Origin: an uncultured Actinomycetota bacterium
GTDB taxonomy: Bacteria > Actinomycetota > Actinomycetes > Mycobacteriales > Pseudonocardiaceae
Assembly: GCA_963822335.1 (NCBI GenBank)
Contig: CAWGHE010000007.1
Location: 741,464 to 805,463, forward strand
Reading direction: 5' to 3'
Length of the DNA: 64,000 bases
Numbering within the stretch: position 1 is the stretch's first letter; each line of letters starts with the position of its first letter. Below, piece after piece: positions 3,665-21,757 of the stretch. Below the pieces are notes generated by a model. That model saw only the letters and a list, made by a program, of their open reading frames with translations, had not been told where the DNA came from and did no database searches. The position numbers and the translations under genes were made by a program.

Positions 3665-3691
3665 GGACAACGCCGCGCAGCAGATTTGTCC
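3665..3691. promoter_or_regulatory. Inverted repeat GGACAA-N15-TTGTCC, candidate operator upstream of the dikinase operon
   Basis: GGACAACGCCGCGCAGCAGATTTGTCC lies about 150 nt upstream of the ATG at 3828. The same half-sites with the same 15-nt spacing recur at 11433-11459 in the BMC promoter region. Confidence 0.5.
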
Positions 3692-3827: not shown

Positions 3828-4247
3828 ATGGGCGATGTGCTCGCCGAGGGCTACAACGTCTTCGACACCAAGAAGTCGCCGAGCGGGACGGTCAAGTACC
3901 TGGAGTCGCCGGCCGACGTCATCGGTCTGATCCAGTCCGGAAAGCTCGGGGAGCACATCCTGCTGGTGCGGGGCGGTACGACGACGTTCCTCGCCCCGGC
4001 GCTGTCGATGGGGTCCATCGGCGTGATCACGATGTCCGGGGCGCCGGAGTCGCACCTGGGCATCCTGTCGCGCGAGTTCCAGACGCCGTGCGTGATGACC
4101 GCGCACCTGACGTCGAGCGAGTCCCGCTACCTCGTCGGCTCGACCGACGAGTCGCACTTCGTCGAGATCGCCAAGGCGCTGGACGGGCGCAGGGTGCGGC
4201 TGGACTGCACCGACGACGAGACCGGCCGCGTCGTCGCGGACGACTGA
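3828..4247 (+). CDS. Stand-alone PEP-utilizing-enzyme mobile (swivel, phospho-His) domain protein, 139 aa
   Basis: RBS GAGGAGGA precedes the ATG at 3828. HILLVRGGTTTFLAPALSMGSIGVITMSGAPESHLGILSREFQTPCVMT aligns with the PpsA/PPDK swivel motif (...vlVt..t.P.w.p....a.giVT..GG.tsHaAIiaRE.GIPaV). There is no ATP-grasp or TIM-barrel domain in this ORF. Confidence 0.75.
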   Translation: MGDVLAEGYNVFDTKKSPSGTVKYLESPADVIGLIQSGKLGEHILLVRGGTTTFLAPALSMGSIGVITMSGAPESHLGILSREFQTPCVMTAHLTSSESRYLVGSTDESHFVEIAKALDGRRVRLDCTDDETGRVVADD

Positions 4248-4290
4248 GCTGCCCTCGACACACCGACCACCCGCCGAGCAGGGAGACGAC

Positions 4291-5726
4291 ATGACAGCGA
4301 CCGAGGGCAAGCGCGCGACGTACAAGGACCGCTACCGAGGAGGCCGACGACGGCCTGCGGTTCCAGGACCTCACCTACACCGGCAACTTCGTCGGCATGG
4401 AGCCCGTCACGGACGGGATCAAGGGCGACAAGATGATGAAGTCGCGCGCCAAGTCGGGCGTGCTGGAGAAGGTGTCCAAGGAGGACGTTCTCCGCGACCG
4501 GTTCACCATCGACGAGCTCAACGATCTGAACAACTACCTGGCCTGGAACATCTGGGACGTGCTGGTCATGCGCGCCACCGAGGGCGTCAGCGGCATGATC
4601 CCCCGCCAGGAGTACGAGATCCTGGCCTTCATGCACGAGTTCTACCGCTGGCCGGAGATCATGGCGCATGACCACGGAGGAGGTCGGCGGCGCCCAGGGG
4701 ATCATGGACATCGGTGCCACGGCCCGCCGGGAGATCGGCACCAAGGTCAACGCGGTGCACGACTGGTGCATCGGTGCGGTCGGCTTCGGCATGGGCCGCT
4801 GCGGACTGCTCGCCCTCGAGGTGATCAAGCCGGACGAGTACGTCGACGAGTCCAACGAGATCCTCAAGTTCATGCAGCGGGTGCTGTGGGGCAAGCGGCA
4901 GGACGGCTACATCCTCAACTCCCAGGACCGCTACCGCTGCCGCATCCACGAGCAGGACTTCCTGGACCAGATCGTCGCCCAGGTCGAGGAGCTGGAGCCG
5001 GACAGCCCCAAGCACCACACGTTCACCCAGTTCAACGCGGCCGCCGAGCTGCTGGCGTTCCTCGACCACTACGACTGCCGGCTCGGGCTCGGCGACACCG
5101 GCCCGTACGAGCTGCCGGACGGCAAGTTGCTGATCCTGCGCGACCTGTTCGTCAACGAGGAGGTCTTCCACTGGAGCGACGTCTGCGAGGACGCGAAGCT
5201 CCCGCACGTCTACTCGCTGGCCCTGATCATCGACCCGGAGAAGATGGGGCTCAACGAGATCCGGGTGAACGACATCTCCACCACGTTCACCCGCCCGAAG
5301 AACTACATCGACGCGATCGTCGGCGGCGCGGTGTTCGCCCGGGAGAAGTGGAACACCCCGATGGGCGAGGTCTACCCGATCAAGATCGACGACCTCGGTG
5401 ACCACATGGGACGCATCCAGCAGGCGACGCTGAAGCTGTACCAGAAGACGGCGAAGATGTGCCGTCGCGACCTGATCTGGAACGGCCAGTACGTCTACTA
5501 CATCGACATGATCCTCCCGCACATGCGGCTGGCCGGGACGTACGAGAAGGCCTGCCGCGACTACGACCTGTGGGAGATCGACCAGCGGGTCGCGAACTAC
5601 TACTACGACATCACCAAGCGCGGGTTCGCGCAGGAGACGGTGCCCAGCAAGATCTTCTCCGGGGCGGGATACCTGCCGTTCCCGGAGGGCGTGAGTCCGC
5701 GCCGGTCGAAGTACCGGGTGCTGTAA
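4291..5726 (+). CDS. Orphan protein of about 477 aa, unknown function; reading frame broken twice in this sequence (near 4330-4336 and 4660-4668)
   Basis: RBS GGGAGA plus ATG at 4291 (MTATEGKRATYKDRY). Coding continues in the +1 frame (TEEADDGLRFQDLTYTGNFVGMEPVTDGIKGDK...EFYRWPEIMA), then in the next +1 frame (MTTEEVGGAQGIMDIG...RRSKYRVL, stop at 5726). It is rich in K, D, Y, I and N relative to its neighbours. I recognise no family. Confidence 0.6.
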
Positions 5727-5738
5727 CCGTCCCCTTCT

Positions 5739-5777
5739 CCGGGCGGCGTGGCGTGGGGTGCGCGCCACGCCGCCCGG
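5739..5777 (+). terminator. Strong GC hairpin (15-bp perfect stem) between the orphan gene and the wHTH gene
   Basis: CCGGGCGGCGTGGCG (5739-5753), a 9-nt loop, then CGCCACGCCGCCCGG (5763-5777). No T-tract follows, as is usual in high-GC actinobacteria. Confidence 0.45.
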
Positions 5778-5803
5778 ACCTGTGCCCGAGCGGAGGCCTC
5801 GCT

Positions 5804-6412
5804 GTGCTGGACAAGACCGACTACGACGTGCTCAACGCCGTCGCGCTGAAGAAGATGGCCTCGGCCGGCGCCGTCGCCGAGACGACCGGGTTGCCCGAGT
5901 CCGACGTGAACGACGCGCTCGAGCGTCTGATCGGGCAGGGGCACGTCCTGGTGGCCGCGGGATCGGCGCTCCCCGCCGACTCCGCCGAGCCCGCCCTGCG
6001 CGAGGCCGCCGTCGAGCGCTACGCGGGGGTCCGGGAGGACGCGGGAGTCGCGGCACTCGTCGAGAAGTTCGAGACGGTCAACATGCAGTTCCTGTCCACG
6101 ATGTCGTCGTGGCAGCAGGTCGAGGTCGGCGGGAAGAAGGTCACCAACGACCATTCCGACCCGGACTACGACGAGAAGGTGATCGCGAGGCTGGACAAGC
6201 TCGTGCAGCGGCTGGCCCCGCTGCTCGATGCGCTCGCCGAGCACGACGCGCGCTTCGCCGGCTACACCCGCCGCTTCGCCGCGGCCCAGCAGGCCGTCGA
6301 CTCCGGGCGGCACGAGATGGTGTCCTCGCCGAGCGCGGACTCGGTGCACAACGTCTGGTTCGAGTTCCACGAGGACCTGCTGCGCACGCTGGGCCGGGAA
6401 CGCACCGAATGA
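5804..6412 (+). CDS. Hypothetical protein with an N-terminal winged-helix-like segment, 202 aa
   Basis: GTG at 5804 preceded by CGGAGG (5791-5796). VLDKTDYDVLNAVALKKMASAGAVAETTGLPESDVNDALERLIGQGHVLV looks MarR/wHTH-like; the C-terminal half is helical. High GC3 in this frame. Confidence 0.6.
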   Translation: MLDKTDYDVLNAVALKKMASAGAVAETTGLPESDVNDALERLIGQGHVLVAAGSALPADSAEPALREAAVERYAGVREDAGVAALVEKFETVNMQFLSTMSSWQQVEVGGKKVTNDHSDPDYDEKVIARLDKLVQRLAPLLDALAEHDARFAGYTRRFAAAQQAVDSGRHEMVSSPSADSVHNVWFEFHEDLLRTLGRERTE

Positions 6413-6419
6413 GCAGGCC

Positions 6420-8895
6420 ATGAGCGGTGTCGGCATCTCCCGTGTCCCCGCGCACACGTGGGCGTTCGCCGAGGCCGACGCGGCCGACGTCGCGCGGCTC
6501 GGCGGGAAGGGCGCCGGTCTGGCCCGGATGACGCAGCAGGGCCTGCGGGTGCCGCCGGGCTACGTCGTGGGCACCGAGGCGTGCCGGCGCTACCTCGCCG
6601 ACGGCCGCATGCCGGACGGGCTGGACGCCGAGATCGCGGCCCGTCTGGCGGATCTGGAGGCGGCGACCGGCAAGACGTTCGGCGCCGGCCCGCTGCCGCT
6701 GCTGCTGTCGGTCCGCTCCGGGGCGCCGGTCTCGATGCCCGGGATGATGGACACCGTCCTCAACCTCGGTCTGGGGCGTGACGCCGCGATCGCGATGGCC
6801 CGGGCCACCGGGGACTCCCGGTTCATGGCCGACCTGGTGGTCCGCTTCCACACGATGTACGCCGAGATCGTGCTCGGGGCGCTGGACCCGGGTGCGGACG
6901 TCGGGGACGTCGATCCCGGCGACGATCCCGGCGCCGCCTACGACCGGGTCTGGGCCACGTGCCAGCAGGCCCTCGCCGACGACGGCGACGACCCGGTCCC
7001 GGACGACCCGCGCGCCCAGCTGACCGGCGCCGTCGAGGCGGTGTTCCGGTCCTGGAACACCCGCCGCGCCCGCACCTACCGGGAGCACCACGGCATCGAC
7101 CATGCGATGGGGACCGCCGTCGTCGTGCAGTCGATGGTGTTCGGGAACCTCTCCGAGGACTCCGGGTCCGGTGTGGTGTTCACCCGCAACCCGGTCACCG
7201 GGGAGCCGGGGCTGTTCGGCGAGTATCTGGCGCACAGCCAGGGCGAGGACGTCGTCGCCGGCACCCGCACACCGGATCCGGTGACCGACGCGCTGCCGCC
7301 GGACCTGCTGACCGAGCTGCGCGCGGTCGGTGCGGACCTGGAGCGCTCGCACGGCGACGTGCTCGACATCGAGTTCACCGTGGAGCGGTCCACGCTGTAC
7401 CTGCTGCAGGTGCGCAGCGCGAAGCGCACGCCCGAGGCGGCAGTCCGGATCGCCTCCGATCTCCTCGACGAGAGCGCGGTCGGCGAGGCGGCCGCGCTGC
7501 GGGCCGTGACGTCGGCGCAGGTCCGCCACGTCCAGCGTCCGGGGTTCGACGACGACGAGGTCGCCCAGGCCCGGTCGTCCGGCCGGCTACTGACCGCCGG
7601 CATCGGGGCCTGCCCCGGCCAGGTGTCCGGGACCCTGGTGCTCGACCCGGACCGGGCCAAGGAGATCGCCGACGGTGGCACGCCGGTCGTGCTGGCCCGC
7701 TCGGTGACCAGCCCGGCCGACCTGCACGGCATGATCGCCGCGGCCGGGATCGTCACCGCCACCGGCGGCTCCACCAGCCACGCGGCCGTCGTCGCGCGGG
7801 CGCTGGGTACGACGTGCGTGGTCGGGGCCGGGGCACTGCGCATCGACGAGGGTGCGCGCTCGCTGCACGTCGGCGACCGGGTGCTCGCCGAGGGGGACGC
7901 GGTCTCGCTGGACGGCTCGACGGGCGAGCTGTTCGCCGGCACGTTCGCGACGGCGACCCCGGCCGCGGCGACCGACGCGCTCGCGTCGCTGCTCGGGACG
8001 GCGCGCCGGGTCTCCGGCTGTGAGGTGCTCGGCCGGGTCACGCTGCCCGCCGACGTCGAGCCGGTCCTGGCGTCCGGAGCGACCGGGCTGGTCACCGCCG
8101 TCGACGACGTCCTGGCCGCCACCGGACACCTCGACCTCCCTGGTGCACGGACTGCTGGAGGGCTCGGCCCGCGGACCGGACGAGCTGGCCGACCAGGTCG
8201 CGGCGGGGCTGACGCCGCTGCTCGCCGCGGCGGACGGGCGGGAGGTCGGGGTCCGTGCGATCGACCTGGTCGCCGACGAGGCCCGCGAGCTGCTGCAGCA
8301 GACCGCCGTCACCACCCGGCACCCGGAGCTGTCCGTGCCGCTCGGGCGACCGGAGCTGGTCCGGGCCCAGATCGACGGGCTCGCCCGCGCCGTGCGCGAG
8401 TCGGGGGGACGGGCGCACCTGGCGCTGCGGCACGTGTCCGACCCGGCCGAGGCCGCCGCGCTGCGCCCGCTGGCCGACGGGGCCGGGATCGGGATCGGGA
8501 CGTACCTGACCGCGCCCCGCGCCGTGCACGGGATCGAGGCGATCGCCGTCCACGGCGACGTGTGCTGGATCGAGCTGCGCACGCTGCAGGCGGCGATGAT
8601 CGGCCTGCCGCCGCGGCAGCTGTACACGGCCGAACCGCTGGACGGCTACCTCGCGCGTGGACTGTTCACACTGGACCCGCGGCGCACGCTCGACCCGACC
8701 GTGGCCGAGCTGCTGGCGCGCGCGGCCGCGACCCGGGACCGCCTGCCCGACTGCCGGATCGGCGTGCGGATGTCCGCCAGCGCCTCCGACGAGACGGTCA
8801 CGGCGCTGTACCGGATGGGATTCCGCCGATTCGCCGTGGATGCCGCCGGCAGCCGCCCGCTGCAGCTCGCGCTGGGGCAGGCCGCCGCCGGGTGA
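6420..8895 (+). CDS. Pyruvate,phosphate dikinase-like protein with a degenerate C-terminal domain; frame broken near 8138-8140
   Basis: N-terminal PPDK motifs: LGGKGAGLARM, LLSVRSGAPVSMPGMMDTVLNLGL, GSGVVFTRNPVTGE, DIEFTVERSTLYLLQVRSAKRT. Swivel motif: VTATGGSTSHAAVVARALGTTCVVG. After an extra C in the run at 8138-8140 the frame continues as LVHGLLEGSARGPDEL...LALGQAAAG (ORF 7852..8895). Confidence 0.8.
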
Positions 8896-9263: not shown

Positions 9264-10346
9264 TCAGGTCGCCGGTCGCAGATCCGGCCGCACGGCGGCG
9301 AGCAGCTCGGCGAGCGATCGGTCGGCGGGATCCGCCTCGGCGAGCGACCCGCCCGGCCGGCGGGTCGACGCTCGGGGGGCGAATCCGGGGGGGCCGGTGC
9401 GGACGGCGCATCGCCCGGTCACCGTCCTGCCACCGTGCCGCGGCGACGCGTCGCCGCCGCCGTCGCGCCGCTCGCCGCCATCGGCCGAGGCGTCGGCAGG
9501 CAGGGCGGAGGACACCGGCGCGCGGTGGACCGGCCCTGGGGACGGGCCCTGAGGAGACGGGCCTGGGGAGGCCGGCGCGGACGAGAGCGACACGGAGGAC
9601 GCCGGCGGAGCAGCGCAGGAGCCCGTCGCACACGCCTTGGTCGGCGGACCGGTGGCGTCGTCGCCGAGCAGGTACGCACCCACCTCCTGCGGCCACAGCG
9701 CGACGAACTCCGCGCCGGCCTCGGTGAGCTCGTCGGCCGAGTGCATCCCCCAGGCCACGCCGATCACCCGGATCCCGACCTCGCGGGCGTCGCGGACGTC
9801 GCCTGCGGTGTCGGTGACCAGCACGGTGCTGGACGGGCCGGGGGACAGCCGGCGGTTGCCCTCGTCGTAGTCGGCGGCGCAGCGGCGGCCGAAGCCGCTG
9901 CCCGCGTCGTCGAGGAACGCGCGGATCGCGGCCCGCTTGTCCGGCGCGACGTCGCCGCCGAACACGTGCGCGAAGCAGTACGCGATGTCGTTGTCCACCA
10001 GCACGCGTCGCAGCACGGCCATCGCGTTCGAGGACATCACGGCGAGCGTGCACTCCGAGGCCAGCCGCCGGACGACGTCCCGCATGCCCGGTACGAGCGG
10101 CGGCGAGTAGTCGCGGCGCAGCAGCGTCAGGAACTCCTGTTTGACCTCCTCGGCGTGCGCGTCGTCGCGGCAGCGCTCGGCCAGCGAGGCGAAGATGTTG
10201 CCGCGGAACAGCGCGAAGAACTCCTCCGGGGAGTCCACACCCAGCCCGTGCCGCCGGTTGACCTGCTCGAAGATCTCCCAGGACGCGATCCGGGTCTGGA
10301 CCAGCGTGCCGTCGAGATCGAAGACGACCGCACGCGTCGGATCCAT
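9264..10346 (-). CDS. HAD-superfamily hydrolase (phosphoglycolate-phosphatase-like) with a ~130-aa Pro/Ser/Ala-rich C-terminal tail
   Basis: Start ATG (complement 10344-10346) within ORF 9264..11285(-). MDPTRAVVFDLDGTLVQT (motif I DxDGT), AVMSSN (motif II), VLVTDTAGDVRDA (motif IV). The start overlaps the stop of the upstream gene (TGATG). Confidence 0.75.
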   Translation of the reverse strand: MDPTRAVVFDLDGTLVQTRIASWEIFEQVNRRHGLGVDSPEEFFALFRGNIFASLAERCRDDAHAEEVKQEFLTLLRRDYSPPLVPGMRDVVRRLASECTLAVMSSNAMAVLRRVLVDNDIAYCFAHVFGGDVAPDKRAAIRAFLDDAGSGFGRRCAADYDEGNRRLSPGPSSTVLVTDTAGDVRDAREVGIRVIGVAWGMHSADELTEAGAEFVALWPQEVGAYLLGDDATGPPTKACATGSCAAPPASSVSLSSAPASPGPSPQGPSPGPVHRAPVSSALPADASADGGERRDGGGDASPRHGGRTVTGRCAVRTGPPGFAPRASTRRPGGSLAEADPADRSLAELLAAVRPDLRPAT

Positions 10347-11338
10347 CACCCGAGCACGGCGTCCCAGATGGCGCCGAGCTCGCCGAGGCCGATGAAGTCC
10401 ATGCACTCGCCGAACCCGGTCCTCCCGTCCAGCGTCCAGCGGTGCAGGCAGTTGTGCCCGACGACGCCGGGCTGGGACTGCCACGGGAACGTGGTCAGGG
10501 CGTTGCCCTCCAGCTCGAACACGGTGTCCCGGGAGTCGGTGACCCGCACCCGGATCCGTTCCGGGTAGAGGCCCTTGCGGTCGGTGACGCCCTCGCCGGC
10601 CTTGAGCCCGTACAGCTGCCCGCCGTCGAGCACGTAGCCGTGCGTGAGGGACAGCGTCGTCGGCGCGTCCGGCCCGTTCTCCGGCTTGTAGTCGAACAGC
10701 CCGTGGAACACCGTCCCGTCCGGGAAGTGCGCGTGCATCCAGGACAGCCGCGACACCTGGCGTTCGGCCCGCACGCCCCAGCTGTGGTCCATCGTGGAGA
10801 TGCAGTCGATCGTCTCGGTCCGGCCGCGGATCGAGATCTCGCCCTCGAACCGTCCACTCTGGTCGAAGTGGCCGGCGTAGGCGTGCCCCCACGTCTTCGC
10901 CATGTCCTTGCCGGCGGCCATCGGGTCCTGGTCCGGGTCGTTGATGTCGTAGGCGTCGTGCAGCGCCGTGTAGCGGAAATGCAGCTCCAGCCCGGCCGCC
11001 GGGTCGGAGTAGTCGACGTCCCATACCCGGTTCGGGTCGCTGCAGTGCACCTTCAGTCCGTTCGCCAGCTCGTAGGAGACCAGGTTCGACGGCTGCGGCA
11101 CGACCAGGTGCTCCCAGGAGTCCCAGTACTCCGCCGCCCACGGCTCGCGCACGCGCCGGCTGTTCACCGAGACCGTCGATCCGACCACGCCGAGCGGCTC
11201 GCGGAACAGGCCGTACACGCCGACGTTCAGCGGGGCGGGACCGTCCTGGCCGGCGTAGAGGCCGAAGTAGTTGGTCTCCGCCCACAGCGGGTCGTCGCTG
11301 GTGGGGGCGTGGAACTGGGCGTCCTCGTCACGGATCAC
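10346..11338 (-). CDS. Conserved-looking hypothetical protein, 330 aa, unknown function
   Basis: GTG (complement 11336-11338) is preceded by GAGGAGGA at 5-nt spacing. VIRDEDAQFHAPTSDDPLWAETNYFGLYAG...STMDHSWGVRAERQ...HNCLHRWTLDGRTGFGECMDFIGLG. High GC3. Coupled to the HAD gene. Confidence 0.65.
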   Translation of the reverse strand: MIRDEDAQFHAPTSDDPLWAETNYFGLYAGQDGPAPLNVGVYGLFREPLGVVGSTVSVNSRRVREPWAAEYWDSWEHLVVPQPSNLVSYELANGLKVHCSDPNRVWDVDYSDPAAGLELHFRYTALHDAYDINDPDQDPMAAGKDMAKTWGHAYAGHFDQSGRFEGEISIRGRTETIDCISTMDHSWGVRAERQVSRLSWMHAHFPDGTVFHGLFDYKPENGPDAPTTLSLTHGYVLDGGQLYGLKAGEGVTDRKGLYPERIRVRVTDSRDTVFELEGNALTTFPWQSQPGVVGHNCLHRWTLDGRTGFGECMDFIGLGELGAIWDAVLG

Positions 11339-11432: not shown

Positions 11433-11459
11433 GGACAGCGACCGGGCACGACGTTGTCC
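11433..11459. promoter_or_regulatory. Inverted repeat GGACAG-N15-TTGTCC in the divergent promoter region between the orphan/HAD operon and the BMC operon
   Basis: GGACAGCGACCGGGCACGACGTTGTCC. Same half-sites and same 27-nt span as 3665-3691. It lies about 90 nt upstream of the BMC-P start and about 108 nt upstream of the divergent gene start. Confidence 0.5.
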
Positions 11460-11536: not shown

Positions 11537-11836
11537 GTGCAGCTGGCAACGGTGCTCGGCCAGGTCGTCTCCACGGTCAAGGAGCCGGGGCTCGGCCGGT
11601 TCACGCTGCTGCTCGTGCGGGACACCGCCGACGGCGTCCCGGATTCCGACGACGACGGCGGGCCGGGATACGTGGCCGTCGACCTCGTCGGGGCCGGCGT
11701 CGGAGAGGTCGTGCTCGTCGCGTCCGGCGGCGCCGCGCGCGTCGCGGCCGGGGCGGACGCCCCGACCGACCGCGCCGTCGTCGCGATCGCCGACACCGTG
11801 ATCCGGACCGGCACGGTCACCTACCGCAAGACCTGA
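11537..11836 (+). CDS. BMC-P pentameric vertex shell protein (EutN/CcmL/PduN family)
   Basis: RBS GGGAGG (11522-11527) plus GTG at 11537. MQLATVLGQVVSTVKEPGLGRFTLLLVR...YVAVDLVGAGVGEVVLVASGGAAR...AVVAIADTV matches the EutN/CcmL pattern. Confidence 0.9.
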   Translation: MQLATVLGQVVSTVKEPGLGRFTLLLVRDTADGVPDSDDDGGPGYVAVDLVGAGVGEVVLVASGGAARVAAGADAPTDRAVVAIADTVIRTGTVTYRKT

Positions 11837-11851
11837 ACGAGGGAGGACGAC

Positions 11852-12190
11852 ATGGCTGCGACGCCGGGCGGTGCGCCCGCGACGGCGGCCCCCGCGGCAC
11901 CCGTGCTGCGCGGGGCGCTGGGGCTGATCGAGACGAAGGGGCTGGTCGGCGCGATCGAGGCCGCGGACGCGATGGTCAAGGCCGCGAACGTCCAGATCCT
12001 CGGCCACCGGGAGATCGGTGGCGGCCTGGTCACGGTCATGGTGCGTGGCGACGTCGGTGCCGTGAAGGCGGCGACCGACGCGGGCGCCGTCGCCGCGGGC
12101 AACGCAGGCGAGGTCGTCTCCGTGCACGTCATCCCGCGCCCGCACGACGAGACGGAGAGCATCCTCGCGGTCCTCACCCGCCCGAAGTGA
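11852..12190 (+). CDS. BMC-H hexameric shell protein (Pfam00936 type) with a 22-aa Ala/Pro-rich N-terminal extension
   Basis: RBS GGGAGGA plus ATG at 11852. [57 protein letters not shown]...[11 protein letters not shown] is the canonical PduA/EutM/CcmK-like sequence. Confidence 0.92.
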
Positions 12191-13577
12191 TGAGCACCCT
12201 CGACGAGGACCTGGCGTCGCTCGCCGAGGTCCGCCGCAAGGCTCGCGCGGCCCGCCGGGCGTTCGAGGCGGCCGACGGCGCCGACCAGGAGACCCTGGAC
12301 GGCTGGGTGCGCGCGATGGCGCTGGCCGGGACGAAGGCGGCCGAGGAGCTGGCCCGGCTCGCCGCGGACGAGACCGGCTACGGCGTCTACGAGCACAAGA
12401 TCTACAAGAACCGCTACAACACCGGGTTCGTCGCGCGCTGGATGCTCGAGCGGCGCGCGGTCGGTGTGCTGTGGGTCGACGAGGGGTCCCGGGTCACCGC
12501 CGTCGGCACGCCGATGGGGGTGATCGCCGGGATCATCCCGGTGACGAACCCGACGTCGACGGCGCTGTTCAAGAGCCTGGCCGCGGTGAAGTCCGGGAAC
12601 GCGATCGTGCACGCCCCGCACCCGCGGGCCGCGGCGTGCACGCACCGTGCGGCCGAGGTGATGGCCGAGGCCGCGACGAAGGCCGGTGCCCCGGAGGGCC
12701 TGGTCTCCTGCCTGGAGAGCCCGACGCTGCCGGCGACGGCGGAGCTGATGAGCCGCCCGGAGATCGCGCTCGTGCTCGCCACCGGCGGGCCGGGCATGGT
12801 GCGGGCCGCCTACTCCAGTCCGGGAAGCCGACGATCGCGGTCGGTGCCGGCAACGTCCCGGCCTACGTCGGCCGGAGCGTGCCGGACGCGGCCGAGGCCG
12901 CCGAAATGATCATCACGTCGAAGTCGTTCGACAACGGGACGGCGTGCGTGGCCGAGCAGTCGGTCGTCGTCGTCGAGGCGGTGGCGCACGAGTTCCTGGC
13001 GGCGTTCGAGTCCCGCGGCGCCTACTGGTGCAACGCCGCCCAGCAGGATGCGCTCGTCCGCGTGCTGTTCGACGAGCGCGGCGGGCTGCGCCCGGACGCC
13101 GTGGGCCAGACCGCGATCCGGCTGGCCGAGCTGGCCGGGTTCACCGTGCCGTCGACCACCCGGGTGCTCGCCGCCGAGCTGGACTCCGTCGGCCGGGGCA
13201 CCCCGCTGTCCCGCGAGATCCTCGGGCCGGTGCTGTCGGTCTACCGGGTCCGCGACGCCGATGCCGGCTACCGGCGCTGCCGGGAGATCCTGGCGCTCGA
13301 CGGCGAGGGGCACACGACGGCCGTGCACGCGTCCGACCCGGCGGAGATCGCCCGGTTCGGGCTCCTGCCGGCCGGCCGGATCGTGATCAACACGCCCGCG
13401 CTGTTCGGCGGCATGGGCTACTCCACCGACGTCGACCCGTCGTTCCAGCTCGGCACGGGAACCTGGAGCGGCTCGATCTGCTCGGACAACGTCACTCCGC
13501 TGCACTTGATCAACATCAAGCGGATCGCGCACGAGGTCCGCCCGTGGCGCAGCGTCTACGACACGGTCGAGCTGTAG
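12190..13577 (+). CDS. CoA-acylating aldehyde dehydrogenase (PduP/EutE-like); frame broken near 12817-12822
   Basis: The ATG overlaps the BMC-H stop (TGATG at 12188-12192). VGTPMGVIAGIIPVTNPTST, LATGGPGMVRAAYSS then (frame change) GKPTIAVGAGNVP, catalytic-Cys motif SFDNGTACVAEQS, HTTAVHASD. The two halves are ORFs 11518..12909 and 12471..13577. Confidence 0.88.
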
Positions 13578-13579
13578 TC

Positions 13580-14468
13580 GTGGCCACCGTGATCAGCGAT
13601 CCGGCAGCGCAGGCGGACAGATCTGTCCGCCGGCACTGCCGAACGGACGATCATCGAGGCGTGGCGCGGCTGCTCGGGGCCGGCGCGGCCGTGCTGTCCG
13701 GGACGTCGGTCCCCGGCAGCGCGGTCCGGACCCCGGTCCGGGTCGGCGTGGACCTGGGCACGGCCAGCTGCGTGCTCGTCGTGCTGGACGCCGCGGGCGA
13801 GCCGGTGTGGGTGGACGCGCATCCGTCCGGGGCGCTGGCCGACGGCGTGGTCGTCGACTTCGCCCGGGCGATCGCCACCGTGCGGGCGTTGAAGCAGCGT
13901 GCCGTCACGGCCCTCGGGACGGACGACTTTCCCCACGTGGCCACCGCCTACCCGCCGTGCATCCCGGTCGCCGACGCGCGGGCCTGCGCCTACGTGTGTG
14001 AGGCGGCCGGTTTCGGCGAGGTCGCGCTCGTCGACGAGGTGAGCGCCGCGCAGGCCGTCCTGGCGATCGACGACGGCGTCGTCGTCGACGTCGGAGGTGG
14101 TTCCACCGGGGTCGGGGTGTTCGTCGGCGGCGAGCTGGTCGCGCTGGACGACCGCGCCGGCGGCGGTCACCACCTGGACCTGGTGCTGGCCGGGGCGCTC
14201 GGCATCGGCGTCGCGGACGCGGAGCCGCGCAAACGCGAGCACCCCGACGAGTGCCTGCCGATCCTCGTCCCGGGGCTGCAGCGGATCGCCGAGTCGGTGC
14301 GCGCGATGACGACCGACCACCCCGGCCTGCCGCTGCACCTGGCCGGCGGAGCACTGATGATGCCCGGCGCGGACCGGGTGCTCGCCGACCTACCTGGAGC
14401 GATCTGTCGTGACCTACCCGCACGCCCTGCTGATCACGCCGCTCGGGATCGCGGGGTGCGCGACGTGA
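13580..14468 (+). CDS. EutJ-like actin/Hsp70-fold ATPase (BMC-associated chaperone-like protein); frame broken near 14387-14391
   Basis: VGVDLGTASCVLVVLD, VDVGGGSTGVGVF, AGGGHHLDLVLAG. After an extra C near 14389 the +1 frame gives YLERSVVTYPHALLITPLGIAGCAT-stop (TGA 14466-14468), the typical EutJ C-terminus. The start (GTG 13580 or 13589) is uncertain. Confidence 0.75.
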
Positions 14469-15094
14469 GCACGCCGACCCTGCGCACCTACGCGTTCATC
14501 GACCGGATGCAGCCGCAGTGCGCGGCGCACATCGCGGCGACCAGCCCGGGCGACGTGCCGCTCGCCGGCATGGCCGAGCTCTACATCGAGATGGCCCCGG
14601 GCAACGAGGTGTTCCGCGCTGCGGACATCGCGCTCAAGGCGGCCGGCGTGCGCCCGGCGTTGCAGATCATCGAGCGCGAGTTCGGGCTGCTGGAGATCCA
14701 CTCCGAGCAGCAGGCGGAGGTGCTGGCCTCCGGGGAGGCGGTGCTCGCCGAGCTGGGGATGTCCGAGTCCGACCGGATCCGCCCGTCGATCGCGTCGACG
14801 CAGTTCATCACGAACGTGCACCCGTACCAGGCGCAGCTGCTCAACAAGTGGCGCAAGGGATCCATGCTGATGCCCGGGCAGAGCCTGTTCGTCATGGAGG
14901 TCGCGCCCGCGGCCTACATCTCGATCGCCGCGAACGAGGCGGAGAAGGCCGCGGACATCACCGTGATCGAGCTGCGCGCGGTCGGCCGGTTCGGGCGGAT
15001 GTTCCTGTCCGGCACCGAGAGCGACGTGCAGGCCGCGCGGGACGCCGCCGTCGCCGCGCTGGAGGCCATCGACGGGCAGGAGCCGGGCCGATGA
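14465..15094 (+). CDS. BMC-T tandem-domain (pseudohexameric) shell protein, 209 aa
   Basis: The GTG overlaps the EutJ stop (GTGA at 14465-14468). Two BMC-like halves: LRTYAFIDRMQPQ...EVFRAADIALKAAGV...LLEIHSE and TQFITNVHP...AAYISIAANEAEKAADITVIELRAVGRFGRMFLSG. The ORF track fuses it with EutJ in the 716-aa ORF 12944..15094. Confidence 0.75.
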   Translation: MSTPTLRTYAFIDRMQPQCAAHIAATSPGDVPLAGMAELYIEMAPGNEVFRAADIALKAAGVRPALQIIEREFGLLEIHSEQQAEVLASGEAVLAELGMSESDRIRPSIASTQFITNVHPYQAQLLNKWRKGSMLMPGQSLFVMEVAPAAYISIAANEAEKAADITVIELRAVGRFGRMFLSGTESDVQAARDAAVAALEAIDGQEPGR

Positions 15095-16447
15095 CCGTCT
15101 GGTCGGTCGCCGACGTCGAGGCTGCTGCGGCGGGGTCGCGCACCGTGCACGTCAGTGCCCGGGACGTCGTCACCCCGCTGGCCCGGGAACGCGCCCGCGA
15201 GCTGGACGTGACCATCGATGTCGTCGACGGGGCCGCGACCGTGCCCGGGGCCGCGCGGCGCAACAGTGCCGCGCGAGCGGAGCGCTCGTCCGGCGTGCCG
15301 GCGGGCCTCGGCGGTGCGCGGCACTCCGGTCCGGGTGCACGAGCGGAGCGCTCGTCCAACGGGGCCGTGCGAGCGGAGCGCTCGTCCAACGGGGCCGCGC
15401 GGGCGAGCCGCTCGTCCGACCCGAGTGTGGCTCCACCACCGGTGCGACCCCCGTCCGGCGCTCTGTTCCGCCGCGGCGCCCCCCTCCCGGCCGGGCTCGG
15501 GGTGGTGCGAGCGGGGCGGACCGGCCGCGTGGCCGTCGTCGGCGCCGGACACGTCGGCATGATCACCGCGATGCGGCTGGCCGAGGCCGACGTGTTCGAC
15601 GAGGTCGTGCTCGTCGACATCGACGCCGGGCGCGCGGCCGGCGTCGCGCTGGACCTGACGCACACGGCGCCGCTCGCCGGGTTCGCCACCCGGGTGCGCG
15701 GCGTCGGCACCGTGGAGGGGGCGGGCTCCTGCGACTATGCCGTGATCACCGCCGGTCGCCCGCGGCAGCCCGGGATGAGCCGCAGCGACCTGATCGGCAC
15801 GAACGCCGCGATCGTCGGGGACGTCGCGTCCACGCTGGCCGCGACGTCGCCGCACGTCGTCCTCGTCGTCGTGACGAACCCGCTGGACGAGATGACCCAC
15901 CACGCGTGGCGGGCGTCCGGGCTGCCCGCCGAGCCGGGTGATCGGGATGGCCGGGGTGCTGGACACGGCCCGCTTCCAGGCGCTGGCGTCGCTGACCGGG
16001 GCGGTGCGGGCCGACCGGATCGACGCCGTCGCGCTCGGCAGCCACGGCGAGGAGATGGTCGTCCCGCTCTCGCAGGCCGCGGCGGGCGGGCGCCCGCTCG
16101 CCGAGACCGTCGACGGGTTGGACGCGATCGTCGACCGGACCCGCGGCTCCGGCGCCGAGGTCGTCGGGCTGCTGTCGTCCGGGAGCGCGTTCCTGGCGCC
16201 CGGCATGTCCGCGGCGCGGATGGTGCTGGCGATGGCCGCGGACTCCGGCGAGACGATGCCGGCCGCCGTGCTCGCCGACGGGCAGTACGGTATTCGCGAC
16301 GTCTACATCGGACTGCCGGTACGGCTCGGGCGCGACGGCGTCCGCGAGATCGTCGAGATCTCGCTGGCCCCCGACGAGCTCGCCGCCCTGCGCACCGCCG
16401 CCGACCGCATCGCCGAGCGGCTCGCCGACCTCGCTCCGGCCCGGTGA
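15091..16447 (+). CDS. LDH-like malate dehydrogenase-type enzyme with a ~140-aa N-terminal extension; frame broken near 15934-15937
   Basis: The ATG overlaps the BMC-T stop (ATGA at 15091-15094). Dehydrogenase core: VAVVGAGHVGMITAMRLA, ITAGRPRQPGMSRSDL (Arg at the MDH-specificity position), VVTNPLDEMTH, then after an extra C VIGMAGVLDTARF and LGSHGEEMVVPLS. N-terminus: MTVWSVADVEAAAAG...SARDVVTPLARERARELDVTIDVV plus a repeat linker. Confidence 0.8.
15271..15420 (+). repeat. Short in-frame tandem repeats (ARAERSS(N)G units) forming the low-complexity linker of the MDH N-terminal extension
   Basis: GAGCGGAGCGCTCGTCC occurs at 15275-15291, 15341-15357 and 15371-15387, with a degenerate copy at 15401-15417. 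It encodes ARAERSSG...ARAERSSNGAVRAERSSNGAARASRSS. Confidence 0.7.
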
Positions 16448-17487: not shown

Positions 17488-17508
17488 CCAGCACGAGAGA
17501 GGTAAGCG

Positions 17509-19632
17509 ATGGCGCCATCCGAGCTCGGGACCGCCCTGATGACGGCCGTCGGGACCGGTGGGCTGACACGCCTGCTGCAGACCCGCCCGGACGACCCCCT
17601 CTCCGCTGCCGAGGCACTGGCCGCGGCCGCAGGACGCGAGATCGGTGTCCCGGTCCAGGTGCTCACCGACGACGGGTGGGTGCTGGCCGGCGTGCCATGG
17701 CTCAGCGACGGCGGGGACCGTGTCGACGCCGCGGGGGTCACCGTGCGGTGGTCCGGGGCGACGCGGGCGGTGCCGGCCGACCTGCTGCGCCAGGCGTGCG
17801 TGTGGCTGTCGCTGCTGCGCGAGCGCGCGGCCGCCCGCGAGGAGCTCACGTCGGCCGGTGCCGAGGCCGACTCGATCCGCGACGTCGTCGGGCGCCTGCT
17901 GTCGGTGCGCGACGCGGACCAGGTGCTCCTGTCGGTGGCCGACTGGGTGCTGCGGCTCCTCGACGCGGACATCTGCGGGGTCCTGCTGCGCGAGGGCGAC
18001 GAGGTCCGGATGCGGTCCTGTGTCGGCCACCGCGCCGTCGAGACCTCGCGGCTGCGGATGAAGCGCGGCCAGGGCGTCGCCGGGCTGGTGTTCCTCACCG
18101 GCGAGCCGGCGAAGGTCGACTCCTACCTCGAGGACCGCACGATCAGCCAGGACTTCATGTTCCTGGCCGAGAAGGAGCAGACGTGCTCCGCGCTCGCCGT
18201 GCCGCTGCGCCTGCAGGGCGAGCTGGTCGGCGTACTCGAGGTGTGGCGCCGTCGCGAGTCCGTGTTCACCGCTCGCGACGTCCAGCGGATGGTCACGCTC
18301 GCCGACTTCGCGACGATCGCGATCGACAACGCCCGCCTGCACGACGTGCAGCTGCAGGCCATGGAGAGCGCCGAGCAGGCGCGCGACGCGCTGGCCCGGC
18401 AGATGACCGTGCTGGACCGCGCGGCGCAGCTGCAACAGACGTTGCTCTCGACGGTGGTGCAGGGCGGCGGCCTCGCCGCGATCGCCCGGACCGTGGCCGT
18501 CGATCTCGGCTGCGAGGTGGGCGTCTACGGCCCGGACGGCGGGCGACTCGCCGCGCACTCCGGTCCGCGGCTGGCCAGCACGCTGCCCGAGTCCCTGACG
18601 GCGTCCGGCACCCGCGCCGGGCCCCGGTCCGGCCGGTGGGTCCGGCCGGTGCACGCCGACGGCGACCGCGTCGGTCAGGTCTGCCTGCTGCAGGGCGACC
18701 AGCCCGCCGAGACGATGGACGCCGTGGCCGGGCACGTCGCGATGGCCTGTTCGCTCGCGCTGCTGCGGGAGCGGGCGGCCAGCCGGGCGCGCTCCGAGGC
18801 GATGGAGCAGGTGCTCTGGGACCTGCTGCAGGGCCCGGTCGAGCACCGGCTTGCCGCGCGCACCCGCGCCCAGCAGCTGTCCGTCCCGCTCGGCGGCGCG
18901 CTGCGGGTGGTCTACGGGCAGATCGAGAACATCGGCCGGCTCGCGGCCGAGCAGGGATGGGAGACCGCGCAGTCCGACCGTGTGCGGCGCGACGTGCTGC
19001 GCGCGGTCCGGTGCGCGGACGGCGGCCGCGCGCCGTCGCTCGCCGGCCTGCGCGGGGACTTCCTCGTCGCGATCGCGGCCGACCTCGACCGGGGCGGGGC
19101 ACGTGAGCTCGTCACGGCCGTCTCGGCGGCCGTGCGCGAGCAGTCCGGTGTCCGCCTGAGCTGGGGCGTCAGCCGGGAGCACACCGACGTCGTCGAGCTG
19201 CCGAGCGCGTTGAACGAGGCGCAGACCGCACTGTCCGCGGCGCACCGCCTCGGCGGGGAGAACGTGTTCCTCTACGAGGAGCTCGGGATCGTCCGGCTGC
19301 TGCTGGGTTCCGGGAGCGACCCGGACCTGCAGACGTTCGTCGACGAGGTCACCGGGCCGTTGCTGGCCTACGACAGGGACAACGACGGCTCCCTGATCCG
19401 GACCCTGCGCGCGTTCTTCGACGCCGACTGCTCGCAGCGCGTCGCCGCGGAGCGGTTGTTCGTGCACCACAAGACGTTGCGCTACCGCCTGGACCGGATC
19501 CGCAGGTTGACCGGCCTGGACCTGTCGCGGCACGAGGACCGGATGCGGGCGGACTTCGCCCTGCGGTTGCTGCAGGTCAACCGGTGCGATCCGGAGATGA
19601 CCCACGGCGACGGGCTCACGCGGGAGGAGTGA
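17509..19632 (+). CDS. PucR/CdaR-family transcriptional regulator with a GAF domain, 707 aa
   Basis: ORF 17509..19632(+). GAF-like block: [35 protein letters not shown]...[14 protein letters not shown]...[22 protein letters not shown]-terminal PucR HTH: [44 protein letters not shown]. Confidence 0.85.
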
Positions 19633-19915
19633 TCGACCCTTCGACGACGCCCTCGGTCTCGCCGTGCGGGCGCGGGATGACGTGGCTGGTGTAGAGCTCG
19701 CCGACGGCGCGAGCGGCGGCCGACCCGGCGTCCACGGCCGCCTGCACCGCTCCGACGTCGCCGCGGACCAGCACGGACACCTGACCGTTGCGCAGCGTGC
19801 GGTAGCCCTGCAGCCGCACGTTCGCAGCCTTCACCATCGCGTCCGCGGCCTCGATCGCGCCGACCAGGCCCCTGGTCTCGACCAGACCGAGCGCACCGGA
19901 TCCCGCAGCCGTCAT
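19616..19915 (-). CDS. Second BMC-H shell protein with an atypical pore loop, 99 aa
   Basis: ATG (complement 19913-19915). [64 protein letters not shown]...[10 protein letters not shown]. The 3' end overlaps the regulator's 3' end by 17 nt (convergent). Confidence 0.88.
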
Positions 19916-20031: not shown

Positions 20032-20709
20032 TCAGCGCTGGCCCAGCAGGTTCGTGCGGACGTCGAGCAGGTGCGCGCGCATGTGGTCGCGGGCCAGGTC
20101 GGGGTCGCGTTCGGTGAGCGCGTCGATGATGTCGCGGTGGCTCGTCCGGTAGCCGCCGCGGCGTTCGGGTGTCGAGGTGCGGCGCTTGATGCTGCCCCAG
20201 ACCGGCAGGTCGCGGGCCGCGTTCATCGTGTCGAACAGCCGCAGCAGGAGCGTGTTGTGCGCGGCGACGGCGATGCCGCGGTGCAGGGCGGAGTCCCAGC
20301 CCTCGAAGTCGGCGTACCCGGTGGCCTGCTCGCTGCGGGTCAGGCAGTGGTGCAGGTGGTCGATGTCGGCCTGGGTGGCCTGGCTGGCGGCCAGCGCGGC
20401 GATCTCGGGCTCCAGCAGCAGCCGGGTCTGCATGATCTCGGCCGGGCTCGTCTGCGGTACCTCCTCGGCGGGCGAGCCGGCGGACGTGGCGAGCGAGTCG
20501 GCGACGAACGTGCCGCGGCCGACCTGGCGCACGATCGACCCCTCCCGCTCGAGCACGGCGAGGGCCCCGCGCACGGCGGTGCGCCCGACGCCGAGCCGGT
20601 CGACGAGCGCGCGCTCGGTCGGCAGCTTCGACCCGGCGCTCAGCGTCCCGCTGCGCAGGCCGTCCACCAGCAGCGCCCGCACCTGTTCGCCCGCAGAAAC
20701 CTCGCTCAC
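20032..20709 (-). CDS. GntR-family (FadR/FCD subfamily) transcriptional regulator
   Basis: Part of ORF 20032..20772(-). Likely GTG start (complement 20707-20709) after [47 protein letters not shown] (wHTH) plus an FCD-like helical C-terminus. Confidence 0.85.
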
Positions 20710-20870
20710 CACACCTCCCGGACCAGCGCGACCAATCGCGAACCAATATAGCCGGTCGCGGAGGGCTGACAAGTACCGACCTGGCCGTTAGCCTCGGCAT
20801 CAGGCGCAACCAAAGCCGACCAGAGACATGATTGGTCGGCAATTGGTCGGGAGATCGAGGAGGCCGGGCG

Positions 20871-21743
20871 TTGAAGCTGGTCACGTACGAGGTGGACGGC
20901 CGTACCGGGCTGGGGCGCGTCGACGACGACGGCGTCACCGTGCGGGACCTGGCCGGGGTCACCGGCGCTCGCGGCCTGCTGCAGGTGATCGAGGAGTGGG
21001 ATGCGCTCGCGGAACCGATCGCTGCCGCGACCGGCCTCCCGGTCGTCGAGAACCCGCGGCTGCGCGCGCCGATCCCGTCGCCGCGGCGGGACCTGTTCGC
21101 GGTCGGCAAGAACTACCGCGAGCACGTCGCCGAGTTCGGGCGGTCCGGCTACGACACCCCGCAGCGCTCGGAGGACCTGCCGGACAAGCCGATCGTGTTC
21201 TCCAAGGCGACCACGTCGGTGACCGGCCCGTTCGACGACGTCGAGTCGCACCCGTCGGTGACGAGCGAGCTGGACTACGAGGCCGAGCTGGCCGTGATCA
21301 TCGGCCGCGGCGGCCGTGGCATCTCCTACGACGACGCACCGGACCACGTCTGGGGCTACACGATCGTCAACGACGTCACGGCCCGCGACGTGCAGCGCGA
21401 CCACAAGCAGTGGCTGCTCGGCAAGTCGCTGGACACGCACGCCCCGATGGGGCCGTGGGCGGTGTCCGCGGACGAGATCGACGACCTCGGTGTGCTGGAG
21501 GTGTCCAGCCACGTCAACGGCGAGCCGCGGCAGCGGGCCGCGGTCAAGGACCTGATCTTCGACGTGCCGGAGCTGATCCGGGTGATCTCCGCGGGGATCA
21601 CGCTGCTGCCCGGCGACGTCATCGCCACCGGCACCCCGGCCGGGGTCGGGATCGGCTTCGACCCGCCGAGGTTCCTGACCCGCGGCGACGTCGTCGAGTG
21701 CGCGATCACCGGCCTCGGCGCGCTCCGCAACACGATCGTCTAG
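20871..21743 (+). CDS. Fumarylacetoacetate hydrolase (FAH)-family protein
   Basis: TTG at 20871 after GAGGAGG (20857-20863), within ORF 20832..21743. [36 protein letters not shown]. Confidence 0.85.
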
Positions 21744-21757
21744 GAGGACGAAACACA

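Follow-up and report, generated by a model that had tools for sequence, protein, structure and literature searches.

A four-gene module with two swivel domains and a PPDK-derived protein beside a MIC1-type microcompartment operon in an uncultured Pseudonocardiaceae bacterium

Gene organization of the locus

We analyzed a 64,000-nt stretch of contig CAWGHE010000007.1 from an uncultured Actinomycetota bacterium of the family Pseudonocardiaceae (hereafter, the window), focusing on four genes in the section 3828-8895 that we designate A, B, C, and D (Table 1). A encodes a free phospho-His swivel domain, B an orphan protein, C a protein with a winged helix-turn-helix (wHTH) fold, and D a protein similar to pyruvate phosphate dikinase (PPDK). 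A preliminary description of this DNA had interpreted them as a split, ATP-driven His-phosphorelay dikinase built around the orphan and located near a bacterial microcompartment (BMC) operon. All four genes are on the + strand and co-directional, as described there, with short gaps between them. The base composition of the window (approximately 72% G+C) is actinobacterial.

The preliminary description read through three frame breaks, two in B and one in D, without remarking on them. Its length of about 477 residues for B holds for the conceptual translation only, which requires two frame changes in the window. Within 12 kb, six breaks interrupt five conserved genes, namely B (two), D, and the aldehyde dehydrogenase (AldDH), EutJ-like, and malate dehydrogenase (MDH)-like genes of the neighboring BMC operon, in which they were located by tblastn with proteins of syntenic loci (L001 and L052). 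Five of the breaks were aligned at the DNA level to Pseudonocardia endophytica, and each is an insertion of 1-2 nt in well-conserved surrounding sequence; the evidence for the break in the MDH-like gene is a tblastn frame jump only. Because the neighboring genes are broken as well, we read the breaks as probable assembly indels, in a pattern typical of an unpolished long-read assembly. The density of breaks could also mean that the cluster is a decaying pseudogene array in this genome. We consider such decay quite unlikely: the DNA-aligned breaks are all short insertions as expected for uncorrected long-read errors, no stop codons or other damage surround the breaks, protein identity holds at 85-94%, and the source contig is 1.19 Mb long. 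Further genes of the window may carry indels of the same kind.

Table 1. Positions of the module genes and of neighboring features in the window
Feature	Position	Strand	Evidence or remark
Operator-like inverted repeat GGACAA-N15-TTGTCC	3665-3691	.	~137 bp upstream of A
A, 139-aa stand-alone swivel (PEP-utilisers mobile) domain	3828-4247	+	PF00391, E 3e-7; intact
Codon of A His76	4053-4055	+	Predicted phospho-acceptor
B, 477-aa orphan, proposed phosphoryl-acceptor/catalytic subunit	4291-5726	+	1-nt insertions at ~4335 and ~4667
C, 202 aa, N-terminal wHTH and helical domain	5804-6412	+	Intact; TrmB and MarR_2 sub-threshold
D, ~824 aa, ATP-grasp, swivel His454, degenerate barrel	6420-8895	+	1-nt insertion at ~8136-8140
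Codon of D His454	7779-7781	+
Frame breaks in B and D	~4335, ~4667 (B); 8136-8140 (D)	+	1-nt insertions relative to Pseudonocardia endophytica
HAD-family phosphatase with low-complexity C-terminal tail and amphipathic end helix (…SLAELLAAVR…)	9264-10349	-	Pfam HAD_2, Hydrolase
DUF7064/DUF7065 protein, constant companion of the module	10364-11338	-	Pfam matches
Operator-like repeat GGACAG-N15-TTGTCC	11433-11459	.	Divergent promoter of shell operon, upstream of BMC-P
MIC1-type microcompartment operon (approximate limits)	11537-16447	+	tblastn with L001 and L052 proteins; Pfam of syntenic L001
BMC-P	11537-11836	+
BMC-H	11852-12190	+
CoA-acylating AldDH	~12190-13577	+	Frame break 12813-12816
EutJ/MreB-like	~13600-14465	+	Frame break 14386-14391
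BMC-T(dp)	14456-15094	+
MDH/LDH-like dehydrogenase with N-terminal extension	15091-16447	+	Frame break ~15920-15933
Frame breaks in AldDH, EutJ-like, and MDH-like genes	12813-12816; 14386-14391; ~15920-15933	+	tblastn frame jumps
GAF–PucR-type regulator, candidate regulator of the regulon	17506-19632	+	Pfam GAF, GGDEF_2, HTH_30

Two swivel histidines and a degenerate barrel

The match of A to PF00391 scores 30.4 bits, above the gathering threshold of 23.1 bits that defines membership of the family, and the motif MSGAPESHLGILSREFQTPCV containing His76 is present, which bears out the proposal that the protein is a swivel domain alone. The segment GAPESHLGILSRE, which holds His76, is invariant among 76 orthologues, and the histidine is kept in all fused relatives (discussed below). 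The swivel histidine of A aligns with the GGSTSH sequence of D. A strong ribosome-binding site (GAGGAGG) lies ahead of the ATG codon of A.

D matches PPDK_N (E 1e-45) and the swivel family PF00391 (E 5e-20), and its residues 3-553 align to PPDK from Clostridium symbiosum (1kbl) with an E value of 1e-117. The ATP-site motifs GGKG, SVRSGAPVSMPGMMDT, and DIEFTVE…LQVRSAKRT align with their PPDK counterparts, and the shared pattern of 1kbl and 9pzl (GGKG, SVRSGAxxSMPGMMDT, and DxEFTxE…LQxRxxKRT) is kept, which identifies an ATP-grasp of the PPDK type. The swivel motif GGSTSHAAVVARALG with His454 follows the PPDK pattern G-G-x-T-S-H-A-A. Therefore, the motifs of a PPDK-like protein with ATP-grasp and swivel histidine stand as previously described, but the reading frame of D in the window is not intact.

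The C-terminal barrel of D (approximately 290 residues) differs in its state of conservation. A profile built from 29 orthologues matches PPDK 5jvn (E 4e-14) and recognizes the barrels of PPDK and enzyme I, although the domain itself is only 42% conserved. At the positions aligned to R617, E745, N768/D769, and C831, which we take to be the catalytic barrel residues of PPDK (C. symbiosum numbering), the residues of the 29 orthologues are substituted or variable. The score against the PPDK equivalog model TIGR01828 is 527.6 bits, below the cut-off of 843.45 bits. Because the catalytic residues of the barrel are lost and the score falls under this cut-off, D is derived from PPDK but is not a true PPDK; a genuine PPDK was ruled out as a candidate on these grounds, and complementation of a genuine ppdK function by D seems unlikely for the same reason. 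The NCBIfam model PRK05878 ('pyruvate, phosphate dikinase') is matched at 487.5 bits, above its cut-off of 456 bits, over profile positions 25-525 of 534, and this model, presumably built on the Rv1127c/VadK type, covers the ATP-grasp and swivel only. The rifampicin phosphotransferase model NF041857 gives 60.1 bits against a cut-off of 999. Since barrel-less D-like proteins of 555-570 residues partner the fused ABC proteins in Rhodococcus opacus B4 and L087, the barrel is probably dispensable.

An orphan protein with a confidently predicted structure

The conceptual B protein has 446 relatives. The best 120 of them are full-length (475-478 residues), with identities of 75-91%; every one is annotated as 'hypothetical', and Pfam domains are absent from the whole group. 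An exhaustive HMMER scan of 1.84 billion cluster representatives yielded only 259 clusters with B relatives, which remain full-length down to approximately 25% identity. In the 80 related loci described below, the identity is 72-92% throughout and approximately 75% between Actinomycetota and Proteobacteria, which places B among the most conserved unannotated proteins that are likely to be met.

We found no match of B in Pfam or NCBIfam, and the best hit of a 48-sequence profile against the sequences in the PDB had an E value of 0.88. The AlphaFold2 (AF2) model is of high confidence (pLDDT 93.9, pTM 0.93) and shows a helical N-terminal half and a β-rich region with flanking helices. In a Foldseek search of this model against 350,542 PDB chains, the best E value was 0.68 with a TM-score of approximately 0.1. 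These searches are consistent with the initial statement that B has no recognizable motif, and neither the profiles nor the fold comparison detected membership of a characterized family. With its confident predicted structure and no PDB match, B is a candidate for a new enzyme fold. A diverged barrel of the phosphoenolpyruvate (PEP)-utilizer (PPDK) type was considered and ruled out by an hhalign probability of 0.07%.

Among the residues still conserved in relatives of only 25% identity are R94, P104, Y108, G168, R263, G265, D268, G270-P271-Y272, R283, and W294, and it is plausible that the conserved arginines and the aspartate serve as phosphate or metal ligands. Rv1125 and Rv1126c of Mycobacterium tuberculosis had been suspected as homologues of B and C; a look-up of the cluster members returned environmental proteins only. 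The G+C content of B is 0.646, compared with 0.70-0.76 for its neighbors, which is compatible with horizontal spread or with a strong compositional constraint.

A wHTH protein with a conserved C-terminal motif

A protein identical to C exists in public data (P0270), encoded on a 1.19-Mb contig. Its Pfam scores are under the thresholds (22.1 versus 25.6 bits for TrmB and 21.8 versus 27 bits for MarR_2), and the AF2 model (pLDDT 94.4) has a wHTH fold at the N-terminus, in line with the earlier designation of C as wHTH-like. In Foldseek, this part matches MarR, PadR, and GntR domains locally, with root mean square deviations of 1.3-5 Å over 70-100 residues; no match was obtained for the full length or for the helical domain that follows the wHTH. 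The invariant residues of C cluster in its C-terminal part (SVHNxWFEFHEDLLRTLGR). Residues 32-44, which are predicted to form the recognition helix, are poorly conserved, whereas the putative operator of the locus is conserved, which is suggestive with regard to the role of this fold.

Conservation and fusions of the module

In a scan for B restricted to one genome per species, 179 genome stretches were obtained, and 80 were kept as a locus set in which all open reading frames were clustered. B was found in 79 of these loci, A in 73, C in 71, and D in 66, with the absences mostly at contig ends, and the order A-B-C-D is constant throughout. The loci come from three phyla, Actinomycetota, Proteobacteria, and Vulcanimicrobiota. 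The actinobacterial hosts are Pseudonocardia, Actinomycetospora, Amycolatopsis, Nakamurella, Rhodococcus, Nocardia, Gordonia, Williamsia, Cryobacterium, and Microbacterium; the others include Bradyrhizobium, Xanthobacter, Methylocella silvestris, other Rhizobiales, Dokdonella, Steroidobacteraceae, Burkholderiales, and Vulcanimicrobiota. The co-occurrence across genomes that the preliminary description had named as a check is thus found, and the clustering of the four genes is far beyond chance.

Fusion proteins connect three of the genes physically. P0130, P0138, and P0142 (772-794 residues) consist of an N-terminal PF00391 swivel, the B domain, and approximately 200 further residues, and the C-terminal tail of P0130 is homologous to C of the window (E 1e-18). 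P0144 and P0225 are swivel-B fusions. In total, A+B and A+B+C fusions of this Rosetta-stone type occur in at least five distant clusters. A plasmid protein of R. opacus B4 (793 residues) has PF00391 and a weak TrmB-type match at the position of C, and a PPDK_N gene is located upstream or downstream of these fusions. Because distant relatives fuse them in a single chain, A, B, and C most probably constitute one enzyme, in which the free swivel histidine is tied to B and C. Likewise, because a C-like domain is fused to swivel and B in these relatives, C appears to be a subunit or domain of the enzyme and not a free-standing or obvious regulator.

The fusions directly support the earlier suggestion that the orphan is the substrate-binding or catalytic partner and the free swivel a phosphocarrier. 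As a whole, the proposal of a split ATP-driven His-phosphorelay dikinase gains support from this comparison, which is independent of the evidence on which it was first made.

Association with MIC1 microcompartments

The end of D (8895) and the first shell gene (11537) are 2.64 kb apart, in agreement with the 2.6 kb noted initially. The operon beginning there corresponds to the locus class MIC1, or Metabolosome with Incomplete Core 1 (Axen 2014, Sutter 2021; PMC4207490, PMC8217296). It matches this class in its shell, AldDH, MDH-like, and EutJ-like genes: BMC-P, BMC-H, BMC-Tdp, a pfam00171 AldDH, an N-extended Ldh-type dehydrogenase, an MreB/EutJ-like protein, and a phosphatase are all present. 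MIC1 is described as having neither a phosphotransacylase (PTAC) nor a signature enzyme (PMC4207490), and PTAC and a known signature enzyme are absent here as well. The shell AldDH is typed as CoA-acylating, with AdhE-N, EutE, and SauS as the best models. The 2021 catalogue contains 46 MIC1 loci (Sutter 2021), and its tree files give the MIC1 label to the same genera and loci, including Rhodococcus ACS1. In Rhodococcus sp. ACS1, the MIC1 BMC-H gene (CJ179_49055) is 14 genes from the orphan (CJ179_49125). The ACI and ARO types were also considered and excluded, ACI being acidobacterial and ARO having ring-cleavage enzymes. Published MIC1 descriptions neither name a signature enzyme nor mention the ABCD module, and the supplements of the BMC catalogue do not mention pfam01326, pfam00391, or 'dikinase'. 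We found no later literature on MIC1 function and no mention of dikinase-like genes in this connection. A second BMC-H gene (19643-19897, - strand) is located just past the PucR regulator of the window, and its product is 68% identical to BMC-H of Actinomycetospora callitridis.

Within 10 kb of B, the 80 loci contain a DUF7064/65 protein (58 loci), the BMC AldDH (53), BMC-P (52), a HAD phosphatase (47), an EutJ-like protein (46), and BMC-H (45). Two gene orders are observed. In Actinomycetota, ABCD is followed by the HAD and DUF7064 genes on the opposite strand and then by the shell operon, which diverges from them. In Proteobacteria, DUF7064, HAD, A, B, C, and D make up a single operon, and the shell operon is transcribed divergently from it. 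We consider that the tail-bearing HAD phosphatase and the DUF7064/65 protein, judged by this conserved company, belong to the unit of the module. The DUF7064/65 protein has no sequence relative in the PDB.

The closest NCBIfam and PDB relatives of the HAD protein are phosphoglycolate-phosphatase-like. Comparison of the window with loci L005-L082 indicates that, in all shell-linked loci, the protein carries a low-complexity C-terminal tail of 70-200 residues. This tail is marked by a Cys-rich patch and a poly-Arg run and ends in an amphipathic helix (…D/ELLxAVRRV… in actinobacteria and …LLxSLRRL… in proteobacteria). The tail is missing in the proteins of shell-less Xanthobacter (236 residues) and Allosphingosinicella (251 residues). 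It looks like the encapsulation peptides of BMC enzymes. The phosphatase tail tracks the shell genes, and this pattern suggests that the shell encloses a reaction whose substrate is phosphorylated.

The promoter regions of the module and of the shell operon had been noted to carry the same inverted repeat. GGACA-N17-TGTCC occurs at exactly two sites in the 64 kb, one per promoter, compared with 0.05 expected, and two or more sites occurred in 0 of 100 shuffles. Exact copies are found at the equivalent places in 39 of the loci examined; approximately 12 loci have the motif ahead of their A orthologue and approximately 30 ahead of BMC-P. The core GACAA-N15-TTGTC is retained in Williamsia and Gordonia. 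In L003, a distant metagenomic relative, a copy of the repeat immediately precedes the gene for the fused ABC protein. We regard it as a conserved putative operator of one regulon. The GAF–PucR-type regulator adjoins the module in at least 13 loci and in the distant version of Methylibium petroleiphilum PM1.

Because the adjacency is kept in two gene orders, because both promoters share the operator, and because the HAD tail occurs only where shell genes are present, the comparison supports the assignment of the module as a dedicated part of the MIC1 pathway and regulon. The BMC link proposed in the preliminary description holds, as does its shared operator, and it is found in many other genomes too.

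Shell-less and distant versions

Some proteobacterial loci contain the module without shell genes. In L061 (Methylocella silvestris TVC), L064 and L077 (Xanthobacter), and L063, a single operon has the order zinc-dependent alcohol dehydrogenase (ADH), AMP-forming ligase, AldDH2, DUF7064, HAD, A, B, C, D, and PucR. The non-acylating AldDH2 and the AMP-forming ligase stand in for the acylating AldDH of the shell. Because of this replacement, the shell-linked and shell-less versions both appear to end in the conversion of an aldehyde to an acyl-CoA. An AMP-forming ligase is directly upstream of A in approximately 20 loci, and a Y_phosphatase3 protein follows D in 18 close loci.

More distant relatives occur in catabolic surroundings. 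On plasmid RPME01 of M. petroleiphilum PM1 (L085, 480-495 kb), a 31%-identical B is accompanied by a DUF7064/65 protein, an A-like swivel, a C-like 'MarR' protein, and the GAF–PucR regulator. This set directly adjoins the hcmAB-hcl-meaB cluster for 2-hydroxyisobutyryl-CoA mutase and ligase and a thiamine pyrophosphate enzyme; no D-like gene was seen within the 25 kb shown at this locus. In L086 (R. opacus B4 pROB02) and the metagenomic contigs L087 and L088, the ABC genes are fused or split and translationally coupled in operons that encode a cytochrome P450, ferredoxin, ferredoxin reductase, Zn-ADH, AldDH, CoA ligases, two APH/EcKL-type kinases, and a Y_phosphatase3 protein. In L086, a class-III aminotransferase and an APC permease, both of which are RMM-like, are located close to the operon.

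PPDK enol-phosphorylates a methyl ketone, pyruvate. Together with the range of hosts and the descent of D from PPDK, these catabolic surroundings indicate short-chain carbonyl or hydroxy compounds as substrates, which we take as a lead and not as a result. The hosts (Pseudonocardia, Rhodococcus, Gordonia, Xanthobacter, Methylocella, Bradyrhizobium, and Methylibium with its methyl tert-butyl ether plasmid) and the P450, ADH, and AldDH genes hint at the degradation of short-chain or branched hydrocarbons and ketones. In the accessible part of an acetone/2-hydroxyisobutyric acid proteome paper, the acetone-induced 507-residue AldDH of Actinomycetospora chiangmaiensis could not be linked to this locus, and a literature search on ethylene glycol and on Methylocella and propane yielded nothing of relevance.

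Comparison with known phosphotransfer systems

D has in common with PPDK (EC 2.7.9.1; C. symbiosum 1KBL) the ATP-grasp, the domain with the swivel histidine, and, at the C-terminus, a barrel that is homologous in the two. In D, however, the barrel has lost the ligands for PEP or pyruvate and Mg, and the acceptor side is provided by the separate proteins A, B, and C. Phenylphosphate synthase of Thauera aromatica (PpsABC) is also a split, multi-subunit dikinase of the PEP-synthase type, with a separate ATP-binding subunit, a His carrier, and a small accessory subunit, and it phosphorylates a small molecule other than pyruvate with release of AMP and Pi. In contrast to the module, it has only one His-carrying protein, and its acceptor subunit is PEP-synthase-like, whereas B has no recognizable relation to any domain of PEP utilizers. 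Rifampicin phosphotransferase combines an ATP-grasp and a swivel histidine with an unrelated substrate-binding domain; it is a single chain with a resistance function and no homology to B, and D scores far below the cut-off of its model.

His-to-His relays that start from a swivel domain are known from enzyme I and HPr of the phosphotransferase system (PTS) and from DhaM and DhaL/DhaK, and the Dha relay ends on a C3 hydroxy-ketone. Unlike the situation proposed here, the donor in these systems is PEP and not ATP, and their carriers have HPr or EIIA folds, which are unmatched in the module in Pfam. An actinobacterial BMC that obtains its aldehyde through a phosphorylated intermediate is represented by RMM1, with an aminopropanol kinase and a phospho-lyase; the RMM kinase is of the APH type and the lyase depends on pyridoxal phosphate. 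An analogy with the steroid 25-OH kinase/ATP-dependent dehydratase was ruled out, that kinase being an unrelated APH-type phosphotransferase.

VadK (Rv1127c) of M. tuberculosis, a truncated PPDK, autophosphorylates with Mg-ATP on its swivel histidine by experiment, and it is described as a regulator of the methylcitrate cycle (PMC13400623). Its ATP-grasp and swivel core resembles that of D, and its architecture is exactly that of the D-like proteins that lack the barrel and accompany the ABC fusions. In contrast to VadK, D of the window keeps a degenerate barrel of approximately 290 residues and comes with defined partners (A, B, and C) in the setting of a BMC. By analogy, VadK is the closest characterized counterpart of the presumed autophosphorylation of D. 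Compared with other phosphotransfer systems of the PPDK/PEPS type, the putative two-swivel relay, a B protein without a known fold, and the connection to a microcompartment are new.

Proposed mechanism and alternative explanations

We give about an even chance to the interpretation that the region encodes a multi-subunit, PPDK-derived His-phosphorelay dikinase that is dedicated to the MIC1 pathway. Sequences and their comparison show the gene architecture, the conserved histidines, a barrel without its catalytic residues, the gene fusions, the co-occurrence of the four genes, and the operator that both promoters have. D would bind ATP at the ATP-grasp and phosphorylate itself on the swivel His454; if D follows the PPDK reaction, the β-phosphate would go to the histidine and the γ-phosphate to Pi or water. 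The barrel of D would be catalytically dead and serve as a scaffold or docking surface only. The phosphoryl group would then move from D to His76 of A, the mobile domain of the A·B·C enzyme, and B together with the invariant HNxWFEFHEDLL motif of C would pass it to a small metabolite. A short-chain methyl-ketone or hydroxy-carbonyl compound is the suspected acceptor. The DUF7064/65 protein and the HAD phosphatase would process the phosphorylated product to an aldehyde, which would be converted to an acyl-CoA by the acylating AldDH in the shell or, in shell-less versions, by AldDH2 and the AMP-forming ligase. We infer the steps of phosphotransfer, their direction, and the class of the substrate.

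A more specific form of this proposal is tentative, and we regard it as possible but somewhat unlikely. In this form, A·B·C, D, the tailed HAD protein, and the DUF7064/65 protein would represent the missing signature chemistry of MIC1: the new-fold enzyme, charged from ATP by the histidine relay, phosphorylates a small carbonyl or hydroxy metabolite in the cytosol, the caged precursor enters the shell, and only there does the encapsulated phosphatase free the reactive aldehyde on which the acylating AldDH acts. The metabolite to be phosphorylated might be of the acetone or acetol type, derived from short alkanes or branched compounds. If this form is correct, no other microcompartment would be known to receive a phospho-intermediate made by a dikinase, and the fold of B would be new among catalysts that transfer the phosphoryl group of phospho-histidine.

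Several points weigh against the relay dikinase. We know of no direct precedent for transfer from one swivel to another in the PPDK/PEPS family, and A could instead be phosphorylated directly at the ATP site of D. The wHTH fold predicted for C makes a regulatory role possible, and the encapsulation role of the HAD tail is deduced from a sequence pattern only. The copy in the window may be non-functional if the breaks in B, D, and the AldDH, EutJ-like, and MDH-like genes are real. The VadK precedent has been interpreted as regulatory and not as catalytic (PMC13400623).

If the module were a signalling phosphorelay, D would be a VadK-like His kinase, A an HPr-like carrier, and B and C a sensor and effector that control either enzyme activity or the MIC1 regulon, the latter through binding of the wHTH of C to GGACA-N17-TGTCC. 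The fold of C, the operator sites ahead of the two operons and ahead of the ABC fusion gene, and the description of VadK as a regulatory kinase (PMC13400623) would fit such a role. We nevertheless consider it unlikely: the loci already hold a dedicated GAF-PucR regulator, C is most conserved in its C-terminal HNxWFEFHEDLL motif and varies in the recognition helix despite the conserved operator, the conservation of B at 72-92% across phyla is enzyme-like, and the distant variants are coupled translationally in catabolic operons with P450, ADH, AldDH, and CoA ligase. The relay might also operate in reverse, from an acyl or enol phosphate product through B and A to D, with ATP made from AMP and PPi, and thereby replace the phosphotransacylase/kinase pair that the 'incomplete' core of MIC1 lacks. 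This idea draws on the reversibility of the PPDK reaction and on the AMP-forming ligases, which make AMP and PPi, directly upstream of A, as well as on the absence of PTAC from MIC1 (PMC4207490). It is distinctly unlikely in our judgement, since the companion phosphatases (HAD, often tailed, and Y_phosphatase3) would waste the harvested phosphate, an enzyme generating an acyl phosphate is not evident, and aerobic hosts have little need of substrate-level ATP.

The remaining explanations concern the functional class of the module. A split analogue of rifampicin phosphotransferase that inactivates xenobiotics or antibiotics would share the domain logic of ATP-grasp, swivel, and non-homologous substrate domain, and D does match NF041857 weakly. 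At 60 bits against a cut-off of 999, in a catabolic setting with shell proteins that leads from aldehyde to acyl-CoA, and with an extreme conservation of B that is atypical of resistance enzymes, this explanation is highly improbable. That D is an ordinary cellular PPDK and the small genes beside it are unrelated is hardly credible: residues 3-553 are highly similar to PPDK and the PRK05878 model would assign D that name, but the catalytic barrel residues vary, the equivalog cut-off is not reached, and the strict four-gene co-occurrence and the fusions speak against unrelated neighbors.

The relay dikinase, if correct, would extend the known re-use of PPDK modules to a two-swivel relay, and the module may supply partner proteins for VadK-type kinases. 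MIC1 is widespread, and its aldehyde-generating enzyme and substrate have not yet been proposed; a co-regulated phosphorelay beside it would offer a testable entry point.

Other features of the window

No Rfam family was detected at the gathering threshold, and no tRNA or tmRNA gene was found, in the whole window (1-64000). A set of genes resembling those for gentisate or maleylpyruvate degradation is located at 20032-24982, with a GntR-FCD regulator, an FAA-family hydrolase, an amidohydrolase, and a mycothiol-dependent maleylpyruvate isomerase. An arylmalonate-decarboxylase-like gene is found at 46822-47727. A Rieske ring-hydroxylating dioxygenase α-subunit gene (56785-58416) and a glutamine-synthetase-like gene (59830-61494) together recall clusters of the aniline dioxygenase type.

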